The notes under the pieces: generated by a model
Told to the model about the DNA's origin: nothing
Seen by the model: the letters and a program-made list of their open reading frames with translations, nothing else
Databases searched by the model: none
Translations under genes and position numbers: made by a program
Virus record (IMG/VR): IMGVR_UViG_3300027869_000006
Location: 45,769 to 109,768 of that record
DNA from: a virus
Length of the DNA stretch: 64,000 nt
Direction: 5' to 3' (one strand)
Shown: piece after piece, positions 12,659-63,773 of the stretch
How positions within the stretch are numbered: position 1 is the first letter of the stretch
Layout: every line of letters begins with the position of its first letter

Positions 12659-12792
12659 AGTGGTTTTTCAGATGGGTCCATCAAGTGATGTCTTTGTTAC
12701 ACAAGAGGCGCAGCTATAGCGAAACGATCCTGGCTGAGAAGCCGATCCGTTACTATCGACTCGATGGAAGTGACACAACACGTGAGCAATGA
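12655..12792 (+). CDS. 45-aa ORF carrying only the N-terminal motif of the LamG modules
   Basis: ATGA overlap with endolysin stop; YSETILAEKPIRYYRLD resembles YRTTILADNPLYYNRAG and YASVIQADTPLWYGRGD in the tail genes. Confidence 0.45.
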   Translation: MKWFFRWVHQVMSLLHKRRSYSETILAEKPIRYYRLDGSDTTREQ

Positions 12793-13507
12793 AGAGTGCA
12801 AACTGATTGCATACCAACTCTATGATGGTGATCTCCCCATGCAAATCGTTCCGGCACCGCGCAAACGGCAGTGGATGGATCAGACGCCACAGAGTTTTGC
12901 GAACCGTTGCCTCCCGCTCTTACTGGGAAATGCGAGCGGCTGGTGGCTCTTGAACACGCACGAGATACAGGTGACCTGGAACGGCGGCACTGATCTCTCC
13001 GCGCTCACCATCGCGGGTCGGGGTAGTTCGGAGACCGGCTATGCACTGAGCCATTTTGGTAACGGTCTCTTAACTTGGAATATTCCCCTGCTCTTTTCCA
13101 CGCCCCCTGGATATAATTTGCTGGTACGTGGCCCTGCAAACTGGCCCAAAGACGGGGCATACGCACTGGACGGGCTTGTGGAGACAGATCACGCTGTGGC
13201 GACATGGACCATGAACTGGAAGATGACGCGGCCTGGCCTGACCGTCACCTTTGCCAAGGGCGAACCGATAGCACAAATCGTGCCACAGAAGCGTGGAGAA
13301 CTAGAGACATTCACCCCGCAAGTACGGAACATCAGAGAGGCACCAGAGTTACAAGCTGCATACAATGCGTGGGCATCTAGTCGCTCAACATTCAATATGG
13401 AACTGAAGAGACCAGGGTCAGAGGCAGTGAAGCGGCAATGGCAAAAGGATTACTTCCAAGCATCCCATCAAACAAAGGTCGCATTGAAGGAGTTCACAAC
13501 TCCATGA
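12764..13507 (+). CDS. DUF6065-family protein
   Basis: RQWMDQT..FANRCLPL..GN..GW, SHFGNG, GPANWPKDG, GLVETD, TMNWKMTRPG. Confidence 0.75.
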   Translation: MEVTQHVSNEECKLIAYQLYDGDLPMQIVPAPRKRQWMDQTPQSFANRCLPLLLGNASGWWLLNTHEIQVTWNGGTDLSALTIAGRGSSETGYALSHFGNGLLTWNIPLLFSTPPGYNLLVRGPANWPKDGAYALDGLVETDHAVATWTMNWKMTRPGLTVTFAKGEPIAQIVPQKRGELETFTPQVRNIREAPELQAAYNAWASSRSTFNMELKRPGSEAVKRQWQKDYFQASHQTKVALKEFTTP

Positions 13508-13543: not shown

Positions 13544-14128
13544 ATGGCAACGACACCGACAAAAACCCCGAAGCAGCAAGCCTCACTCGCAGGCGTCTGG
13601 CAGGGCATTGAGGCACCAATCATCGGTATCCTCCTCTCCCTTGCCGTAGCTATTCAGCAGTATTTTAGTACCCATAGTGCCCCAAATTGGGGAGAACTGG
13701 GAATGATCCTGTTCCCGACCGTCATTGTTGGTATTGTGCAAGCACTCAAGCAGTTCAATGCAACACTCGGGCAGGCATCAGTTCCCATCGTCACCGTCCC
13801 GCCGCCCGCACCGGTTGTCTCACCATCCGACATTGCGGCAGCGATACGACAGCAGGTACCAGGACTGGTCATACAACAGCCACCGGCACCACCGTCGTTC
13901 ATTGCGCCGTCAGTGCCACCAGGAGGATACGATACGACGCTGGTCCAACCCCTCTCATTCGCCCCTCTGACCACGCCTGCCCAGCCACAACAACCGTACA
14001 CGTGGTCACAGCCAGAACCATCCCCGACACTCACGACACCTGCGCCAGTAATTACGCCGGTATTGTCACTGCCAAGTACGTTTCCGCAAACACTCGATTT
14101 ACCAATCGTACGACCACAAATTGAGTAA
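13544..14128 (+). CDS. Holin-like membrane protein (2 TM) with Pro/Thr-rich tail
   Basis: Two TM segments, GGAGG RBS, located in the lysis region. Confidence 0.6.
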   Translation: MATTPTKTPKQQASLAGVWQGIEAPIIGILLSLAVAIQQYFSTHSAPNWGELGMILFPTVIVGIVQALKQFNATLGQASVPIVTVPPPAPVVSPSDIAAAIRQQVPGLVIQQPPAPPSFIAPSVPPGGYDTTLVQPLSFAPLTTPAQPQQPYTWSQPEPSPTLTTPAPVITPVLSLPSTFPQTLDLPIVRPQIE

Positions 14129-14129
14129 T

Positions 14130-14167
14130 AATAAAGGGTACTACATCTGCATGTAGTACCCTTTATT
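14130..14167. terminator. Bidirectional intrinsic terminator
   Basis: Perfect 17-bp stem AATAAAGGGTACTACAT-CTGC-ATGTAGTACCCTTTATT between convergent transcription units. Confidence 0.85.
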
Positions 14168-14170
14168 CAT

Positions 14171-14363
14171 CCCATACCATACCGCATCCCGCCGGACTGC
14201 ACCCCACCCAGCCTTGCCAGACATTACCCCGCATCGCCACGCCTTACCCCACCGAACTACACCTTACCAACCAGACCATGCCGAACCCGACCGGACCACG
14301 CTATACCGTACCTTACCTTACTGAACCCAGCCAAGCCGGACCTCACCATACCTACCGTGCCAT
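14171..14363 (-). ncRNA. Pentamer array A (NN-GGY units; putative gapped-code guide RNAs)
   Basis: Plus strand parses as RCC-NN: 19 units (14171-14265), 4-nt break, 16 units (14270-14349), 4-nt break, 2 units. Confidence 0.75.
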
Positions 14364-14581
14364 TAAGCGTATCGTGTTTGGTCTGTCTCCCAGTTCACTA
14401 AACGTACAGGTGTCACATCTAAGTCTGTGATAGGAATGCCATACTTTTCTTCAGCTAAACTCAGTCCTTCCTGAGCATCACTAGCGGTTATCTCACCCAC
14501 TATAGGCACCTGCTGCTTTCTTAGCTTGGCATGCACGGTAGTGTCATGTCCCTTATACCAAACATCGAACCTATGCAACAT
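14363..14581 (-). CDS. 72-aa accessory protein translationally coupled to the RAMP gene
   Basis: TAATG stop/start overlap at 14583-14579; stop abuts array A. Confidence 0.65.
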   Translation of the reverse strand: MLHRFDVWYKGHDTTVHAKLRKQQVPIVGEITASDAQEGLSLAEEKYGIPITDLDVTPVRLVNWETDQTRYA

Positions 14582-15129
14582 TACTTCACCTTTTCCCATG
14601 ACACAAGAGCAAATCTCCCATACGGCCCTTTCTTTGCAGGACGGAAGTCACCAATGCCAACAAGTCGCCCTGCATCGGTGAGTATGTCACGGATAAGACG
14701 TTCACCAACTAGATCGGTATCAATCTGAACATCAAACTCCATATTCCACTCATCGAACATTGGCCTGTGGCGTAGAATACGCCCCCCAGTCGCTTTAATG
14801 ACAACAGCCCGTGAGTCCACATGCCATTCCCCTACCAGAGGAATTTCAAATGGGCTAACATAGACCCCTGCCGCTACATCAGTTGTCGCAGCCCTCCGTC
14901 CAATTTTGTGTCGTGATGCTGCTGCAATCATTGACTGCCGAATATTCTCAGCCGGATAGAATGGGCTATGTTCATTGGTATACAGGCGACTTGCCGCATC
15001 TTCATGAGGAGCCGGATATTCTTTCCGACCATGTGTTCCTGAAGTTGCTTCCTCTGCCGCTGCCTCATGAAAACGATTCACGATGAGCGGCGTCAAACTC
15101 GTAATGTTGACCTTGTACGTTACAATCAT
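14581..15129 (-). CDS. Stand-alone Cas7/RAMP-like RNA-binding protein (Vipr-like), 182 aa
   Basis: N-terminal strand YKVNITSLTPLIV, PAENIRQSM helix, thumb-like DSRAVVIKATGGRILRHRPMF, C-terminal Gly-rich loop AGRLVGIGDFRPAKKGPYGRF; GAAAGGA RBS before ATG 15129; flanked by pentamer arrays. Confidence 0.75.
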   Translation of the reverse strand: MIVTYKVNITSLTPLIVNRFHEAAAEEATSGTHGRKEYPAPHEDAASRLYTNEHSPFYPAENIRQSMIAAASRHKIGRRAATTDVAAGVYVSPFEIPLVGEWHVDSRAVVIKATGGRILRHRPMFDEWNMEFDVQIDTDLVGERLIRDILTDAGRLVGIGDFRPAKKGPYGRFALVSWEKVK

Positions 15130-15160: not shown

Positions 15161-15192
15161 GTGGTGCCCTGCCCCAGTGGTAGGGCTACCAC
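15161..15192 (-). promoter_or_regulatory. GC-rich hairpin between array B and the RAMP gene (RNA 3' end, processing or attenuation element)
   Basis: GTGGT-GCCCTGCC-CCAGT-GGTAGGGC-TACCAC. Confidence 0.5.
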
Positions 15193-15211
15193 GCGAAACA
15201 AAATGAACAAA

Positions 15212-15604
15212 ACCATACCAGACCGGACCTCGCCAAACCCGGCCTTGCCAGACCGGGCCTTGCCAGACCGGGCCAAACCCGACTACACTAGACCTCATCA
15301 TGCCACACCTCCCATACCATACCCATCCTTACCGAACTGCGCCAGACCGCAACGTACCAGACCGCGGCAAGCCGGGCCGGACCCAACCTAACCTATTCCT
15401 CAGCAAACCATGCTATACCCCACCTGACCGTAGCACTCCTTCCAAACCGCACCATACCCAACCAAGCAGGACCCCGCGTCACCGCACCTGATCGGGCCAT
15501 ACCCCACCTGACCAAGCCGTGCCTACCTTGCCGCACCAAACCTCACCTCACTCAGTCTTGCCTCGCTGGACCTAGTCGCACCGAACCTGACCTTGCCGTG
15601 CCAT
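15212..15604 (-). ncRNA. Pentamer array B (NN-GGY units; putative gapped-code guide RNAs)
   Basis: Segments of 19 (15212-15306), 16 (15311-15390), 8 (15397-15436), 16 (15441-15520) and 16 (15525-15604) RCC-NN units, separated by 4-nt (one 6-nt) phase breaks. Confidence 0.75.
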
Positions 15605-16237
15605 AATCCTGCTATAGGCCAATTTCACGCAGAACTCAACGTCATTCCATACCTGGGAGCCAGTGAAGCGAAGAACGTACCAGCCTTGATCTTCAATCGT
15701 ATGCTGTCGCATATAGTCTCTATTTCGGTCTCTCTTGTGACTATGGAACGCTTGCCCATCAAGTTCGATTACTATCTTTGCTTCAACATGGGCAAAGTCT
15801 ACACGATACTTACTAATCCGATGCTGTCGCTCAAGAGGGATATCTGGATACAGCAGGCACCATGCTTCATAAAAGGCTTCCTCGATGGGACTTCCATTCT
15901 TGACGGATTGCTGAATTTCCCGTAAACGATTACGAGCCTCATTAAGTGCAGCCTCACGTTGTTGATTAGCAAGTCGCAAGGCTTCTACTCGCTCTGCTTC
16001 TAGTGCTTGACGACGTTCTAGGGCCTGCTCTCGCTTCTCCCGAATGGTTGCTACTTCAATCTCTCTCTGGACAGATTGCTGATGCTCATTCGCACGACGC
16101 TTCAACTCCCTAGCTTCCTGAATCATACTAGCTTTCTCTGCCGCAAGTTGACGTTGTATGGCAAGTTCATGCTCTCTGTCAGCTTGAAGTTTTCGTTGTT
16201 GTTCTTGATAGTCGTTGAATGCTTGCCAGTCCATCAT
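15572..16237 (-). CDS. DUF559/Vsr-like PD-(D/E)XK endonuclease with long N-terminal coiled coil
   Basis: SPIEEAFY, ERQHRISKYRVDF, IVIELDG..FH, RDYMRQ..IEDQGWYVLRFTGSQV; the last codons overlap array B. Confidence 0.85.
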   Translation of the reverse strand: MMDWQAFNDYQEQQRKLQADREHELAIQRQLAAEKASMIQEARELKRRANEHQQSVQREIEVATIREKREQALERRQALEAERVEALRLANQQREAALNEARNRLREIQQSVKNGSPIEEAFYEAWCLLYPDIPLERQHRISKYRVDFAHVEAKIVIELDGQAFHSHKRDRNRDYMRQHTIEDQGWYVLRFTGSQVWNDVEFCVKLAYSRIMARQGQVRCD

Positions 16238-16239
16238 GC

Positions 16240-16413
16240 TTATTGTTCTCGTTTTGTAGGCTTTTGCTGTTTCTGTTGTACTCGTTCTAATTCTTGGTTC
16301 GCTAAACGGTCAAGAAGACTCACGATACTCTCCCCTGTGATGGCATGAAGCATACGCAAGGTGGTAAGTGTCCTTGTCCAGATGCGAGTTGTTTTGTAGT
16401 CATCGGTAGCCAT
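16240..16413 (-). CDS. 57-aa ribbon-helix-helix-like regulator (not in the ORF track)
   Basis: MATDDYKTTRIWTRTLTTLRMLHAITGESIVSLLDRLANQELERVQQKQQKPTKREQ; strand-helix-helix pattern; leaderless start 6 nt after the -10 box. Confidence 0.6.
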   Translation of the reverse strand: MATDDYKTTRIWTRTLTTLRMLHAITGESIVSLLDRLANQELERVQQKQQKPTKREQ

Positions 16414-16419
16414 GAAGTT

Positions 16420-16448
16420 ATTTTACTACAAACAAGTGTTCTTGTCAA
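16420..16448 (-). promoter_or_regulatory. Sigma70-type promoter of the RAMP/array operon
   Basis: TTGACA-17 nt-TAAAAT on the minus strand. Confidence 0.8.
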
Positions 16449-16508
16449 GAGGAAAAGAAGACGCCCTTGACACAAGCATATACTAAGAGCAGAAGGGGGA
16501 ATTTTTCT

Positions 16509-17069
16509 TTGGAACGCGGGTCCGTTATTCTTTTTGAGAAGGATGGCAGTCTCTTCAATTGGCTCATCACGAAAGCAACTCATGGTCCCTATGTCCATGT
16601 GGAAATTTGCCTGGGCGAGGAACGCCTGATCGGTGCTCACGGTAACCGTCGCGGCATCTATGAGCGTGATTGGGCCGATGCACCTTCGTTAGTGACGGAG
16701 GTCTCTCTCTCCCCCTATGCCGATGAAGAGCACATCGAGCAGGCCCTTACCTGGGCGCAAGAGCAACAGGGGCATCCCTATGGATGGTGGGATATCGCCA
16801 GTCAGTCCATCAAGTTCTTGTGGCCAACGACACCGCTCCGGTTCAGCAAGTCAGACGCATGGGGGTGTGCAGACTATGTGACCCGCTATCTGATACAAGC
16901 AGGGGTGGCCTTGCCAGAAGACTTCATGGACCCTGGGAAAAACTCGCCCAACGATATTGGACGGTTGTTCCATCTCGTTCCACAACGGCCACAACGCATC
17001 AGAAAACGGGAGAGAGAGTTGAGGAAAGGTCATGCCATTGCCGCATTTGCCGCCTCCAGACGAGGATGA
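16509..17069 (+). CDS. Permuted papain-like amidase (YiiX/YebB, NlpC/P60 superfamily)
   Basis: G-S-V-I-L-F start motif, His in YVHVEI precedes Cys in WGCADYV, GHPYGW, SPND; AAGGGGG RBS before TTG 16509. Confidence 0.75.
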   Translation: MERGSVILFEKDGSLFNWLITKATHGPYVHVEICLGEERLIGAHGNRRGIYERDWADAPSLVTEVSLSPYADEEHIEQALTWAQEQQGHPYGWWDIASQSIKFLWPTTPLRFSKSDAWGCADYVTRYLIQAGVALPEDFMDPGKNSPNDIGRLFHLVPQRPQRIRKRERELRKGHAIAAFAASRRG

Positions 17070-17720: not shown

Positions 17721-18027
17721 AGCCGAGGTTCCCATCCATTACATACATGCCCAGCATCGCCTCGTCTTCACAAGGGTGCTGGGCATGGTTATGTTGGTGC
17801 CGGTGGCAGGAAATGAGCCTGCGCCTCCGGGTTTGTAGCCCGGCGCTCTCTGAGCTTCACCGGCATAGGCTCTCCTCACCCCAGGTACAGGTAGAGGAAC
17901 GCGAGCACCGTGCGGAAGACGCCCCGCACAAACTCAGTAGGGATGCTATGCGGCCAGACGAGATACAGCAGAGTGAGAAGGATCAAGGTGATCCAGTACC
18001 AATAACGACGCAAAACTCCACGCATGG

Positions 18028-28308: not shown

Positions 28309-29537
28309 TAGCCGCCCCCTTCCGCTTTCGCGGTATAGTGCGCACGGAGGGCGGCCATGCGCTGCGATCCCTCGGTTGGCCCTATGAGTGGAGGCGCGTG
28401 CCTAATGCCCTGCACCTTCGCCTTCTCAATTTTCTCCAATTGCTCTTTGATGGCCCCGGCAACCTCACAGATATCAATGCTCCGCTGACACCAATACTCA
28501 TCAATAGTCAACATGCGGGTACGGGCGGCAATCACCTCAGCCTGTGTATAGTTTTTCACCATGCGATAGGCACATGTATTCGCCTGGGCAATTTGCCGAT
28601 CCGTCAGTAACTCCTTGCCCCCGCGCCACATCTGGAAGAGGTGCAGGCAGGCAGGAACATCCCACTTCACGGGTGATGGGGCAGTAACAGGTACCCCATC
28701 CCGCAGGACCGTGTGCTTGATACCCCCTGTCGGTTGCAAGGAAGCCGCGAGCGACACAGCTACCTGCTTGTCCGTCGGTGGCCCTTCGTCTTCTCGCTCC
28801 TCTTCGGTCTCAGGTACAGGGGATGTATCTTCAAGAGGTGAGAGAGGGAGAACAGGCTCAAGTTGTGAAAATGTTGGAACAACCGGAATCTCTCTCTCTA
28901 AGTCTAAAGAAGATTCTGTAATAGATTCTAATAAGAGGTTAGAATTTTCAACCTCCCCAGGTTCAAAATCTGAAGGTGGGATGTCCGAATTTTCAACCTC
29001 CCCACTTTCTAAATTAGAACCTGGGAGGTTCGGAATTAGAACCTCCCCCCCACCTTCGGAATTAGAACCTCCCTTGAGGAAGAAGCTAAATGTATCCTTG
29101 GGTAACTGGCTCATTGCCTCTTGAATGAGTGGACGGTTGAGGGTATAGAGCGGCGCACCAAATTCCTCCCCTGGTTTACTCCGTGTATAAATCAATGTCT
29201 TCTTAATGAGGGAGTTGATAGCCAGGCGGAGCGTCGTCTTCGAGAGAGAAAGGGGATGCTTTGCTCCTACTTTTTTAGAGTCGAATCGGTAGAGTCGGGC
29301 CAGGATTTGTGTATAGGAGAGACGTACCCAGTAGACCTTTGGTTCAGGTGGGGGAGTGCGTTTTTCTTCAACTGCCTTCGCTACGCGGGTTTGCCAGTTC
29401 TCTTTCTGCTTGACCATATCATATTCAATGATACGCATAATCTTGGCTTCCAGTTCGTCCTGGCAAATGAGGACGAACTCAAGTCGCTCCATAAGAAAAA
29501 GGTTAAAGGGAAATTCAAAGACCGTTGCTTCACTCAT
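28308..29537 (-). CDS. Phage replication initiator with internal iterons
   Basis: Directly upstream of dnaB; wHTH-like LSKTTLRLAINSLIKKTLI; internal direct repeats. Confidence 0.7.
   Translation of the reverse strand: MSEATVFEFPFNLFLMERLEFVLICQDELEAKIMRIIEYDMVKQKENWQTRVAKAVEEKRTPPPEPKVYWVRLSYTQILARLYRFDSKKVGAKHPLSLSKTTLRLAINSLIKKTLIYTRSKPGEEFGAPLYTLNRPLIQEAMSQLPKDTFSFFLKGGSNSEGGGEVLIPNLPGSNLESGEVENSDIPPSDFEPGEVENSNLLLESITESSLDLEREIPVVPTFSQLEPVLPLSPLEDTSPVPETEEEREDEGPPTDKQVAVSLAASLQPTGGIKHTVLRDGVPVTAPSPVKWDVPACLHLFQMWRGGKELLTDRQIAQANTCAYRMVKNYTQAEVIAARTRMLTIDEYWCQRSIDICEVAGAIKEQLEKIEKAKVQGIRHAPPLIGPTEGSQRMAALRAHYTAKAEGGG
28935..29073. repeat. Iterons (putative replication origin)
   Basis: GAATTTTCAACCTCCCCA at 28942 and 28987; TTCGGAATTAGAACCTCCC at 29029 and 29055; AATTAGAACCT at 29012. 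Confidence 0.7.
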
Positions 29538-45468: not shown

Positions 45469-46227
45469 ATGACAAAGAAGCAGTTTATTGCAGAGGTGGC
45501 CTCTCTCTCAAAAGAGGTGGAGTATGTCGCAGCTGGTGGAGGTAGTCTCTTTGACCCTGGGGAGATTGCAGTCCGTGTTCTGCCCAACCTGCGCGGCGGA
45601 CAACTGGTCGCTTACCTCTTCCGGCGCTTCGGGTATCCGAGTTGGAGATGGGATGAGTACAAGGAACTTACTCACTATCTCATTACGACGCCTATGAAAG
45701 ATGTGTTTCTAGAAGTCCGTCCCTACATGGGCGGTGATTCTCCGCAACCATCTTCCTTTGACCATACCGTCCTTATGTTTGGCTATTGTGTGGATAAGGC
45801 TATCGAAGAGGAGAGTTACTACCCGCTTCTGATGGAGGGAAAGCGAAATGACTGGTATGAACATCCTCGCTACAAGGAGTGTAACCAGGCATTTGAAGCA
45901 GCGATGCGCGATCTCTTGCGCCCGGTCTACGTGCGTGATGTCCCTATCAATTGCTATGGGTTGGTTCTCGATGACGACTTGGGAACATGCCCATCGCACG
46001 TCGAGCCATATCATGCAGCGGGCTACCCTATTCCGCAAGCCTTTCTCAGGGATACTGATCGGTATGTACAATTCACCGATGCGCTCTCTACCCTAGGTGA
46101 CGGTTCTATGGACAAGGGCATCGACCGCGTTATCAAGAATGCGGCGACGCTCAAACTGTACACGAGTGCGACGAGAGCAGAAATAGAGGCCGCCCTCGAA
46201 CAGGAAGGAACGGAAGAACATGGATAA
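45469..46227 (+). CDS. Hypothetical protein
   Basis: GGGAGAG RBS, MTKKQF start. Confidence 0.6.
   Translation: MTKKQFIAEVASLSKEVEYVAAGGGSLFDPGEIAVRVLPNLRGGQLVAYLFRRFGYPSWRWDEYKELTHYLITTPMKDVFLEVRPYMGGDSPQPSSFDHTVLMFGYCVDKAIEEESYYPLLMEGKRNDWYEHPRYKECNQAFEAAMRDLLRPVYVRDVPINCYGLVLDDDLGTCPSHVEPYHAAGYPIPQAFLRDTDRYVQFTDALSTLGDGSMDKGIDRVIKNAATLKLYTSATRAEIEAALEQEGTEEHG

Positions 46228-63726: not shown

Positions 63727-63773
<47 letters not shown>

Follow-up and report, generated by a model that had tools for sequence, protein, structure and literature searches.

The locus lies in a 64,000-nucleotide window (the whole stretch of DNA analysed, positions 45,769 to 109,768 of IMG/VR virus record IMGVR_UViG_3300027869_000006) of a 109,768-base phage genome, and consists of a minus-strand cassette situated between two plus-strand genes of the lysis region. 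The cassette contains a gene for a small Cas7-like protein (Vipr) with an array of five-nucleotide units on either side of it, a gene for a protein with a DUF559 nuclease domain, and two small open reading frames. The coordinates of these and the other features discussed are shown in Table 1.

Table 1. Features of the cassette and of the genes bordering it, in window positions.
Feature	Position	Strand	Basis or remark
Left flanking gene, holin-like	13544-14128	+	lysis region
Resident image of guide A1 (13 units)	14057-14095	+	left flanking gene, close to its 3′ end: codons PVLSLPSTFPQTL
Perfect 17-bp hairpin, 4-nt loop	14130-14167	.	between the stop codon of the left gene and array A; sequence reading
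Array A, guide A1	14169-14268	-	20 units, closing GGTAT GGTAT GGGAT; pentamer parsing
Array A, guide A2	14268-14352	-	17 GGY-NN units, exact GGY in 15/17; pentamer parsing
78-aa ORF	14363-14599	-	ORF list; 19-nt overlap with the end of vipr; sits where a vap gene would
vipr, 182-aa Cas7-like RAMP protein	14581-15129	-	phrog_4652 (PHROG 4652), no Pfam family; between the two arrays
Array B, five GGY-NN guides	15205-15602	-	pentamer parsing
Guide B5	15309-15205	-	array B
Guide B4	15393-15309	-	array B; same ending as A1
Guide B3	15429-15395	-	array B
Guide B2	15523-15439	-	array B
Guide B1	15602-15523	-	array B
221-aa coiled-coil + DUF559 (Vsr-like) nuclease-domain protein	15572-16237	-	PF04480 E 1.3e-15, PF18741 E 3.9e-12
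57-aa ORF, first cassette gene	16240-16413	-	ORF list
Promoter-like TTGACA-17-TAAAAT, head of cassette	16420-16448	-	11/12 consensus matches; putative by consensus alone
Resident image of guide A2	16503-16553	+	right flanking gene: two triplets before the start, the TTG start and 14 further codons
Right flanking gene, YiiX/NlpC-P60-like permuted cysteine peptidase	16509-17069	+	fold match; TTG start

The lysis region in which the right flanking gene lies also has an Amidase_2 endolysin, and between the latter and the holin-like gene is a gene for a DUF6065 protein (12764-13507, plus strand; Pfam E 8e-84). The right flanking gene had been labelled a YiiX-like amidase from the sequence alone, and the label stands at the level of the fold: the protein model (pLDDT 82.5) is matched by Foldseek to the cysteine peptidase 3kw0 (E 5e-4, TM 0.53) and to YiiX (2if6, E 8e-3), and His25 and Cys120 are invariant across three homologues. 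There is no family support for it in Pfam or NCBIfam. A tRNA-Cys gene with the anticodon ACA instead of the usual GCA is located about 700 bp to the right of the peptidase gene (17795-17864, minus strand; ARAGORN, and Rfam tRNA at 60.5 bits).

The segment from 14270 to 14349, read on the plus strand, is made of 16 ACC-NN pentamers in which the triplet is ACC, GCC, GCT or ACT, i.e. (A/G)C(C/T), and on the minus strand it reads GGY-NN; the list of NN dinucleotides drawn up in the sequence-only reading was recovered exactly when the units were parsed again. Autocorrelation at a period of five exceeds 0.5 at just two places in the whole 109,768-base genome, ~14165-14355 and ~15190-15600, which are arrays A and B. 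The arrays are divided into segments of 16, 17, 7, 17, 21, 17 and 20 units, separated by 1-nt overlaps or short breaks. Abutting guides overlap by a single nucleotide (GGTTG/GTAA and GGTAG/GCAC), the last unit of A2 being GGTTG with a G that doubles as the G of the first unit of A1, and several of the array B junctions are 4-nt or 1-nt-overlap breaks. The same guide grammar is present in loci L003 and L004, which contain the closest Vipr relatives among the loci fetched, and the layout is consistent with the staggered arrays of fig. S18 in the description of the VIPR system (10.64898/2026.04.26.720920).

Several smaller features of the arrays are seen. B1 (15523-15602) and B2 (15439-15523) both start with GGCAC-GG, the units GGCAC GGTAG before array A (14352-14365) resemble an 'empty' two-unit guide, and B4 and A1 share the ending GGTAT GGTAT GGGA; these shared starts and ends and the 'empty' guide may be processing or capping signals of a staggered array. 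B5 (15205-15309) has an internal 15-nt repeat, GGCCC GGTCT GGCAA twice over (Tandem Repeats Finder period 15, 3.8 copies, 15218-15274), and is therefore partly duplicated. Elsewhere in the window there is a (GA)20 dinucleotide run at 63730-63769 and a 45-nt tandem repeat in 2.5 copies at 28935-29048. As a tRNA was the sole Rfam match in the window, the guides do not appear to be separated by ribozymes. A CRISPR-Cas assignment was rejected, there being no repeat-spacer arrays (the pentamers are the only repeats), no Rfam CRISPR repeat family and no other cas-like gene in the cassette. A TRAP-like or CsrA-like protein-binding RNA, a G-quadruplex repeat and a coding pentapeptide repeat were likewise dropped; no ORF spans the arrays.

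Arrays of this kind belong to VIPR, a phage RNA-guided DNA-binding system described in 2026 in which a RAMP protein, Vipr, is used with vrRNAs of alternating GGY and NN (10.64898/2026.04.26.720920), and for which structures have been reported (10.64898/2026.04.26.720927). Each GGY-NN pentamer of the RNA is covered by one Vipr protomer, with GGY hidden and NN presented (10.64898/2026.04.26.720920; 10.64898/2026.04.26.720927); NN pairs with double-stranded DNA, on either strand and with no PAM, passing over one target base between dinucleotides, in most cases the wobble base of the codon (10.64898/2026.04.26.720920). The decoding used in the sequence-only reading, dinucleotides with one base skipped at the wobble position, is thus the published rule.

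The protein encoded between the two arrays corresponds well to Vipr. Its AlphaFold model (pLDDT 87) has Csm3, type VII Cas7 and Cmr4 as its best Foldseek matches (E 8e-8 to 1e-5), and it is 32% identical over 65 aa, the C-terminal third, to SUSP1 gp039 (E 2.8e-13, tblastn and blastp), the gene located between the SUSP1 GGY arrays and taken here as the published Vipr. A G-rich C-terminal motif is conserved among 49 Vipr relatives, and the metagenomes contain about 120 relatives, some of them 60-75% identical. Pairing of the protein with arrays is also conserved: about 60 of 82 fetched loci have GGY-NN arrays directly beside the vipr homologue and on the same strand, some of them extending to ~1.9 kb, and Pseudomonas phage LESphi2 and Escherichia phage SUSP1 are among these array-bearing loci. 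In one IMG/VR contig (L009, 321-2235) vipr is preceded by a GGC-NN array of ~1.9 kb comprising at least 14 guides. With a minimal RAMP Vipr, tandem same-strand GGY-NN pentamers, and defined segments of the kind expected (about 9-16 units per vrRNA), whose boundaries are parsed from DNA and are predicted RNA ends, the locus is a VIPR system, a class already known, and the segment at 14270-14349 is one of its guides (vrRNA segment A2).

Among the remaining genes of the cassette, that for the DUF559 protein is a candidate VIPR accessory (vap) gene; in both L003 and L004 a homologue of it lies just upstream of array and vipr. The 57-aa and 78-aa ORFs have no family match in Pfam, PHROG or NCBIfam and no relatives in related loci; L004 has an unrelated ORF of 101 aa in the same vipr-overlapping place as the 78-aa ORF. 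The hairpin at the left end of the cassette is likely to be a two-way terminator. The phage backbones of L003 and L004 are unrelated to the present one and the right flanking gene is present in none of the four related-VIPR genomes (0/4), and since the same cassette sits in unrelated backbones from which the right gene is missing, we regard the cassette as mobile.

Guide A2 resembles the beginning of the right flanking gene. As had been noted from the sequence, the NN dinucleotides of A2 agree with codon positions 1 and 2 of 16506-16553 at 20 of 32 positions, ungapped and in the frame of the gene. The identity had been estimated as borderline across the window; taken as a raw count, it is at the level of chance. 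Four window sites reach 20/32, and the 17-unit form of A2 scores 21/34 at two other genome sites, with the maxima of shuffled guides averaging 20.8. The count stands out when the comparison is confined to coding positions in frame, as the sequence-only reading had proposed: among 52,097 in-frame sense codon starts (in ORFs of at least 100 aa), the A2 site is the single best and the sole position with 19/32 or more. The skip rule matters as well, in that the flank sites are genome-wide maxima with a skip of 1 nt and fall below the maxima with skips of 0 or 2 nt; the maxima with a 3-nt skip are the arrays matching themselves only. Significant images of A2 and A1 arise solely with the 1-nt skip and in frame, and the searches found no target at 80% or above for any of the locus's own guides.

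A score that considers the codon structure separates the site much more clearly. In this codon-aware score, the target residue is compared by BLOSUM62 with the residues that each NNx can encode, at all positions on both strands; the metric was picked after the alignment in the sequence-only reading was known. A2 scores 57 at 16503, which is the best in the genome, with the next site at 39 and the remaining guide-sense combinations topping out at 28-46. None of 3000 shuffles of the unit order reaches this score (maximum 56), and the 176 guides borrowed as decoys from other VIPR loci stay below it (maximum 52). With local scoring A2 reaches 58, equalled in 0 of 400 shuffles, and A1 reaches 57 at 14057-14095 in the left flanking gene, also the best in the genome and reached by 1 of 400 shuffles. 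None of the other 12 guide-sense combinations of this locus is significant in the local codon-aware test, and in 14 tests of the same kind in the L003 and L004 genomes no guide beat all of 100 shuffles. The permutation test suggested earlier is therefore significant once it is codon-aware.

Because two neighbouring guides each have their best match in one of the two bordering genes, in frame and with the same polarity, we judge the relation of A2, and with it A1, to the flanking genes to be very probably real, and the resemblance of A2 to the first codons of the right gene first seen by eye holds up statistically when the codon structure is considered. The polarity observed by eye is also confirmed, as both array A guides match where minus-strand RNA complements the coding strand. 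The further suggestion that the RNA might pair with mRNA is unsupported; published VIPR binds double-stranded DNA.

The differences between the guides and the resident genes are informative. The two non-coding triplets before the start are mismatched in the A2 image, and all 15 of the 15 coding positions are identical or conservative. Against the resident gene, A2 reads M (ATG) at the TTG start, E, R and G as in the gene, T for S, I or M for V, V for I, and L or F for L; then F and E as in the gene, H or Q for K, K or N for D, G as in the gene, S (TCN) for S (AGT), and I or M for L. Altogether 12 of the 32 read positions differ, and the differences include ATG versus TTG at the start, Ser TCN versus AGT, Leu TTR versus CTT, and six conservative replacements. 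The A1 image has 17 of 26 NN identities and 11 of 13 compatible residues, and its differences include two serines (AGY in the guide for TCA in the gene, and TCN for AGT) and two leucines (TTR for CTN). This pattern of codon-family switches and conservative replacements is what would be expected of a guide that images a different allele. The switch between serine families is seen in 3 of 3 cases over A1 and A2 (p ~0.1 under independence). The leucine switches carry less weight as a sign of escape selection, since CTN makes up 81% of leucine codons genome-wide and they may simply be ordinary codon usage. Recoding to escape is thus a lead and not a finding.

It is unlikely that the resident gene is itself the working target, as might be supposed from the sequence-only reading. 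Natural VIPR targets are called at an NN match of at least 80%, and the published source contigs are without a self-hit above that line (10.64898/2026.04.26.720920); the resident match is 62.5% (20/32), or 22/32 by hand count when G:U-type pairs are allowed.

Searches for a better target were conducted in several collections. Gapped patterns of A2 units 1-9 and then 8-16 (of the 16-unit list) gave one chance match of 25/34 and then none in IMG/VR; in the JGI metagenomes units 2-11 gave none and units 7-16 gave three matches, all 24/34, in which the units not forced by the pattern are at the random level. The expectation that the A2 pattern would recur at the 5′ ends of YiiX-like homologues was thus disappointed, the 24-25/34 matches being those of chance. 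Ten A1 units had no match in IMG/VR, so that IMG/VR yielded no variant allele with an A2 or A1 match of at least 80%, and the JGI metagenomes none for A2. Comparison of all seven guides with the full genomes of the four nearest phages that carry VIPR, and of the guides of those phages with the present genome, gave nothing at or above 80%, and the array B guides have no significant image or target within their own phage genome. Relatives of the right gene were absent from IMG/VR, from a phage collection and from the same four genomes, and the DUF6065 neighbour likewise had none in IMG/VR. Among 5.8 billion proteins the right gene has just two distant homologues (P0122 and P0123, 43-49% identical), whose N-termini fit A2 less well than does the resident copy. 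The sole public run with the stretch (contigs of a DNA soil metagenome, probably the source) shows the assembled contig alone, free of variants and of any cassette-free joint, and no RNA run is listed. Phages with this backbone are almost unsampled, so the missing target says little.

Other VIPR loci do show guides that resemble their own genomes imperfectly. The clearest case is a 10-unit guide in a Desulfocapsa-MAG locus (L090, 4906-4955), which under the one-base skip matches 20/20 the gene for an AAA_24 ATPase beside vipr in two other loci (L086 at 4213 and L031 at 1232), and matches its own 88%-identical orthologue (L090 at 4197) at 16/20 with three non-synonymous changes (TFRIFTKQTD against TFRIYTRQMD). 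This is a clean case of discrimination between self and non-self. A guide of 21 units in L029 (4663-4767) has a diverged image (27/42, codon-aware z 7.8) at L029 4479, in the 3′ part of a 309-aa gene immediately upstream, the same pattern as that of A1 and A2. The guides of L003 and L004, the closest fetched relatives with DUF559, have no self-images, and images of the flanks are therefore not a rule of the clade. There is also a published precedent for guides with a lower match to self than to rivals (10.64898/2026.10.15.759431, section 8).

The best explanation, in which we have moderate confidence, is that A2 mirrors the start of the neighboring gene codon by codon in a diverged form and is aimed at a variant allele in rival phages, sparing the resident one; it is this divergence from the resident gene start that makes rival versions the probable target. 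Transcription would proceed on the minus strand from the putative promoter near 16448 through the small ORF, the DUF559 nuclease gene, array B, vipr, the 78-aa ORF and array A, and would end at the hairpin at 14130-14167. The 16-17 dinucleotides of A2 spell in frame the beginning of a homologue of the right gene, from its start codon through the 14 codons that follow. The resident copy would be spared and most likely not bound, because 12 of the 32 read positions differ. The guide would then bind and silence, or with the nuclease damage, the corresponding gene of related, competing phages, and A1 may act likewise on the 3′ end of the left flanking gene.

A more elaborate proposal, which we think unlikely, is that the cassette serves RNA-guided homing or marker exclusion. 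Here A1 and A2 would direct Vipr and the DUF559 nuclease to cut the cassette-free flank alleles of co-infecting relatives, with the guides aimed at the border genes of the empty site, and repair from the cassette-bearing genome would copy both the cassette and the recoded flanks. The resident flanks would have been recoded through the Ser and Leu family switches, the only silent changes visible to a wobble-blind code, leaving the proteins intact while escaping their own guides; these further steps are equally doubtful. The arrangement has some appeal: the gene ends imaged by the two array A guides abut the cassette, at about 35-75 bp and 50-100 bp from its edges, the DUF559 gene has the same orientation and is retained before the array in L003 and L004, the occurrence of the cassette in unrelated backbones indicates that it moves, and the nuclease-bearing VIPR types have been proposed to destroy their targets (10.64898/2026.04.26.720920). 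However, the guides of the two closest DUF559-bearing relatives image none of their own flanks, and no cassette-free allele was found in IMG/VR, the phage collection, the protein search or the public run. Both the nuclease activity of the DUF559 protein and its coupling to Vipr are predictions, free-standing DUF559 genes are common in phages, and a text search of the VIPR preprints finds no mention of such a role.

It is still less probable that A2 is a genuine guide whose real target is an unrelated gene elsewhere and that its likeness to the flank is a post hoc coincidence. The raw count would permit this, as it is tied by three other window sites and equalled by shuffled guides, many guides, registers and senses were open to choice when the alignment was first made, and the codon-aware null distributions of some other guides are heavy-tailed (maxima 59-66). 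Nonetheless, no shuffle and no decoy attains the codon-aware score of A2, its site is the best of all in-frame positions and falls exactly on the start of the adjacent gene, an independent second guide best-matches the other flank, and there are no false positives among the 12 other guide-sense tests here and the 14 in relatives. Self-regulation, in which A2 would bind the resident gene start in spite of the mismatches and delay or tune the phage's own peptidase gene, is very improbable. The NN match is well short of that of natural targets, the mismatches are spread along the whole guide, and disturbed NN pairing abolished silencing in a published reporter (10.64898/2026.04.26.720920). The image does cover -6 to +45, the promoter-proximal place where VIPR repression works (10.64898/2026.04.26.720920), and self-directed guides may exist, because in three other loci (L014 3373-3427, L016 3836-3890 and L017 3381-3435) the 11 units of a guide lying shortly before vipr agree with the opening codons of that same vipr at 18/22 (82%), a match not below the 80% line at which the published work reports no self-hits. 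Least probable of all is that A2 is a relic, which once matched an allele of its neighbor and was left without a target by drift of guide or gene. The failure to find a target in IMG/VR or the JGI metagenomes and the imperfect GGY in 2 of 17 units are compatible with decay, but the scaffold is exact in the other 15, the unit count is the canonical 16-17, and absence of a target is little informative for so sparsely sampled a backbone.

A diverged image aimed at rivals can be compared with what is known of related systems. The locus is similar to the type II VIPR of SUSP1 (10.64898/2026.04.26.720920; 10.64898/2026.04.26.720927) in having a phage-borne Cas7-like protein of ~180-195 aa, GGY-NN arrays on the strand of the gene both upstream and downstream of it, 16-21 units per guide, and images that are codon-phased under the one-base skip. 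It differs in that there is no conserved 3′ tail or pseudoknot between guides, that the guides abut with 1-nt overlaps in the 'staggered' layout shown only in a supplementary figure of that paper, that the neighbor is a DUF559 nuclease gene and not the DNA-binding vap1, that the phage is from a soil metagenome, and that the 32% identity of its Vipr is confined to the C-terminal third. The solo vrRNAs of SUSP1-family phages, which target Vipr/vrRNA and match rivals' versions better than their own so that autoimmunity is avoided (10.64898/2026.10.15.759431), share with A2 the resemblance to sequence of the same genome, the targeting of early codons and the placing of the skipped base on the wobble position. 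In contrast, the genes imaged here are the non-VIPR borders of the cassette, the end of the holin-like gene and the start of the peptidase gene, and the better-matching rival allele is predicted. The Vipr fold itself has the RRM, glycine-rich loop and thumb of Class 1 CRISPR Cas7 proteins (Csm3, Cmr4 and type VII Cas7), and like the Cas7 backbone it has one protomer per RNA repeat unit with target bases displaced periodically, but 2 bases pair in each 5-nt unit rather than 5 in each 6-nt period, and there are no CRISPR repeats or spacers, cas genes or adaptation module.

Free-standing phage homing endonucleases such as those of the T4 seg and mob genes act in marker exclusion, and TnpB/IscB transposons use guide-directed retention. 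The present arrangement resembles these in having a mobile nuclease cassette beside sequences recognized in relatives, with the resident copy protected by nearby polymorphisms; recognition would here be RNA-guided through Vipr, and the likeness is one of logic only.

With this locus VIPR, described mostly from enterobacterial and Pseudomonas phages, reaches a soil phage of 110 kb whose array is staggered, lacks tails and has a DUF559 nuclease gene as its neighbor. For the prediction of VIPR targets there is a practical lesson, in that raw NN identity missed a relation that the codon-aware score sees at z ~6. Two adjacent guides are codon-phased images of both genes bordering the cassette, with the resident copies matching at 63-65%, and this clean case from a distant clade lends support to the published view that guides tell the alleles of rivals from those of self. 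It also draws attention to codons with six-fold degeneracy (those for Ser and Leu, and by extension Arg) and to alternative starts, which offer a silent escape from a wobble-blind code, a point absent from the VIPR preprints. Guides at the flanks of their own insertion, together with a nuclease, could if true drive the spread of the cassette, which those preprints do not consider either.
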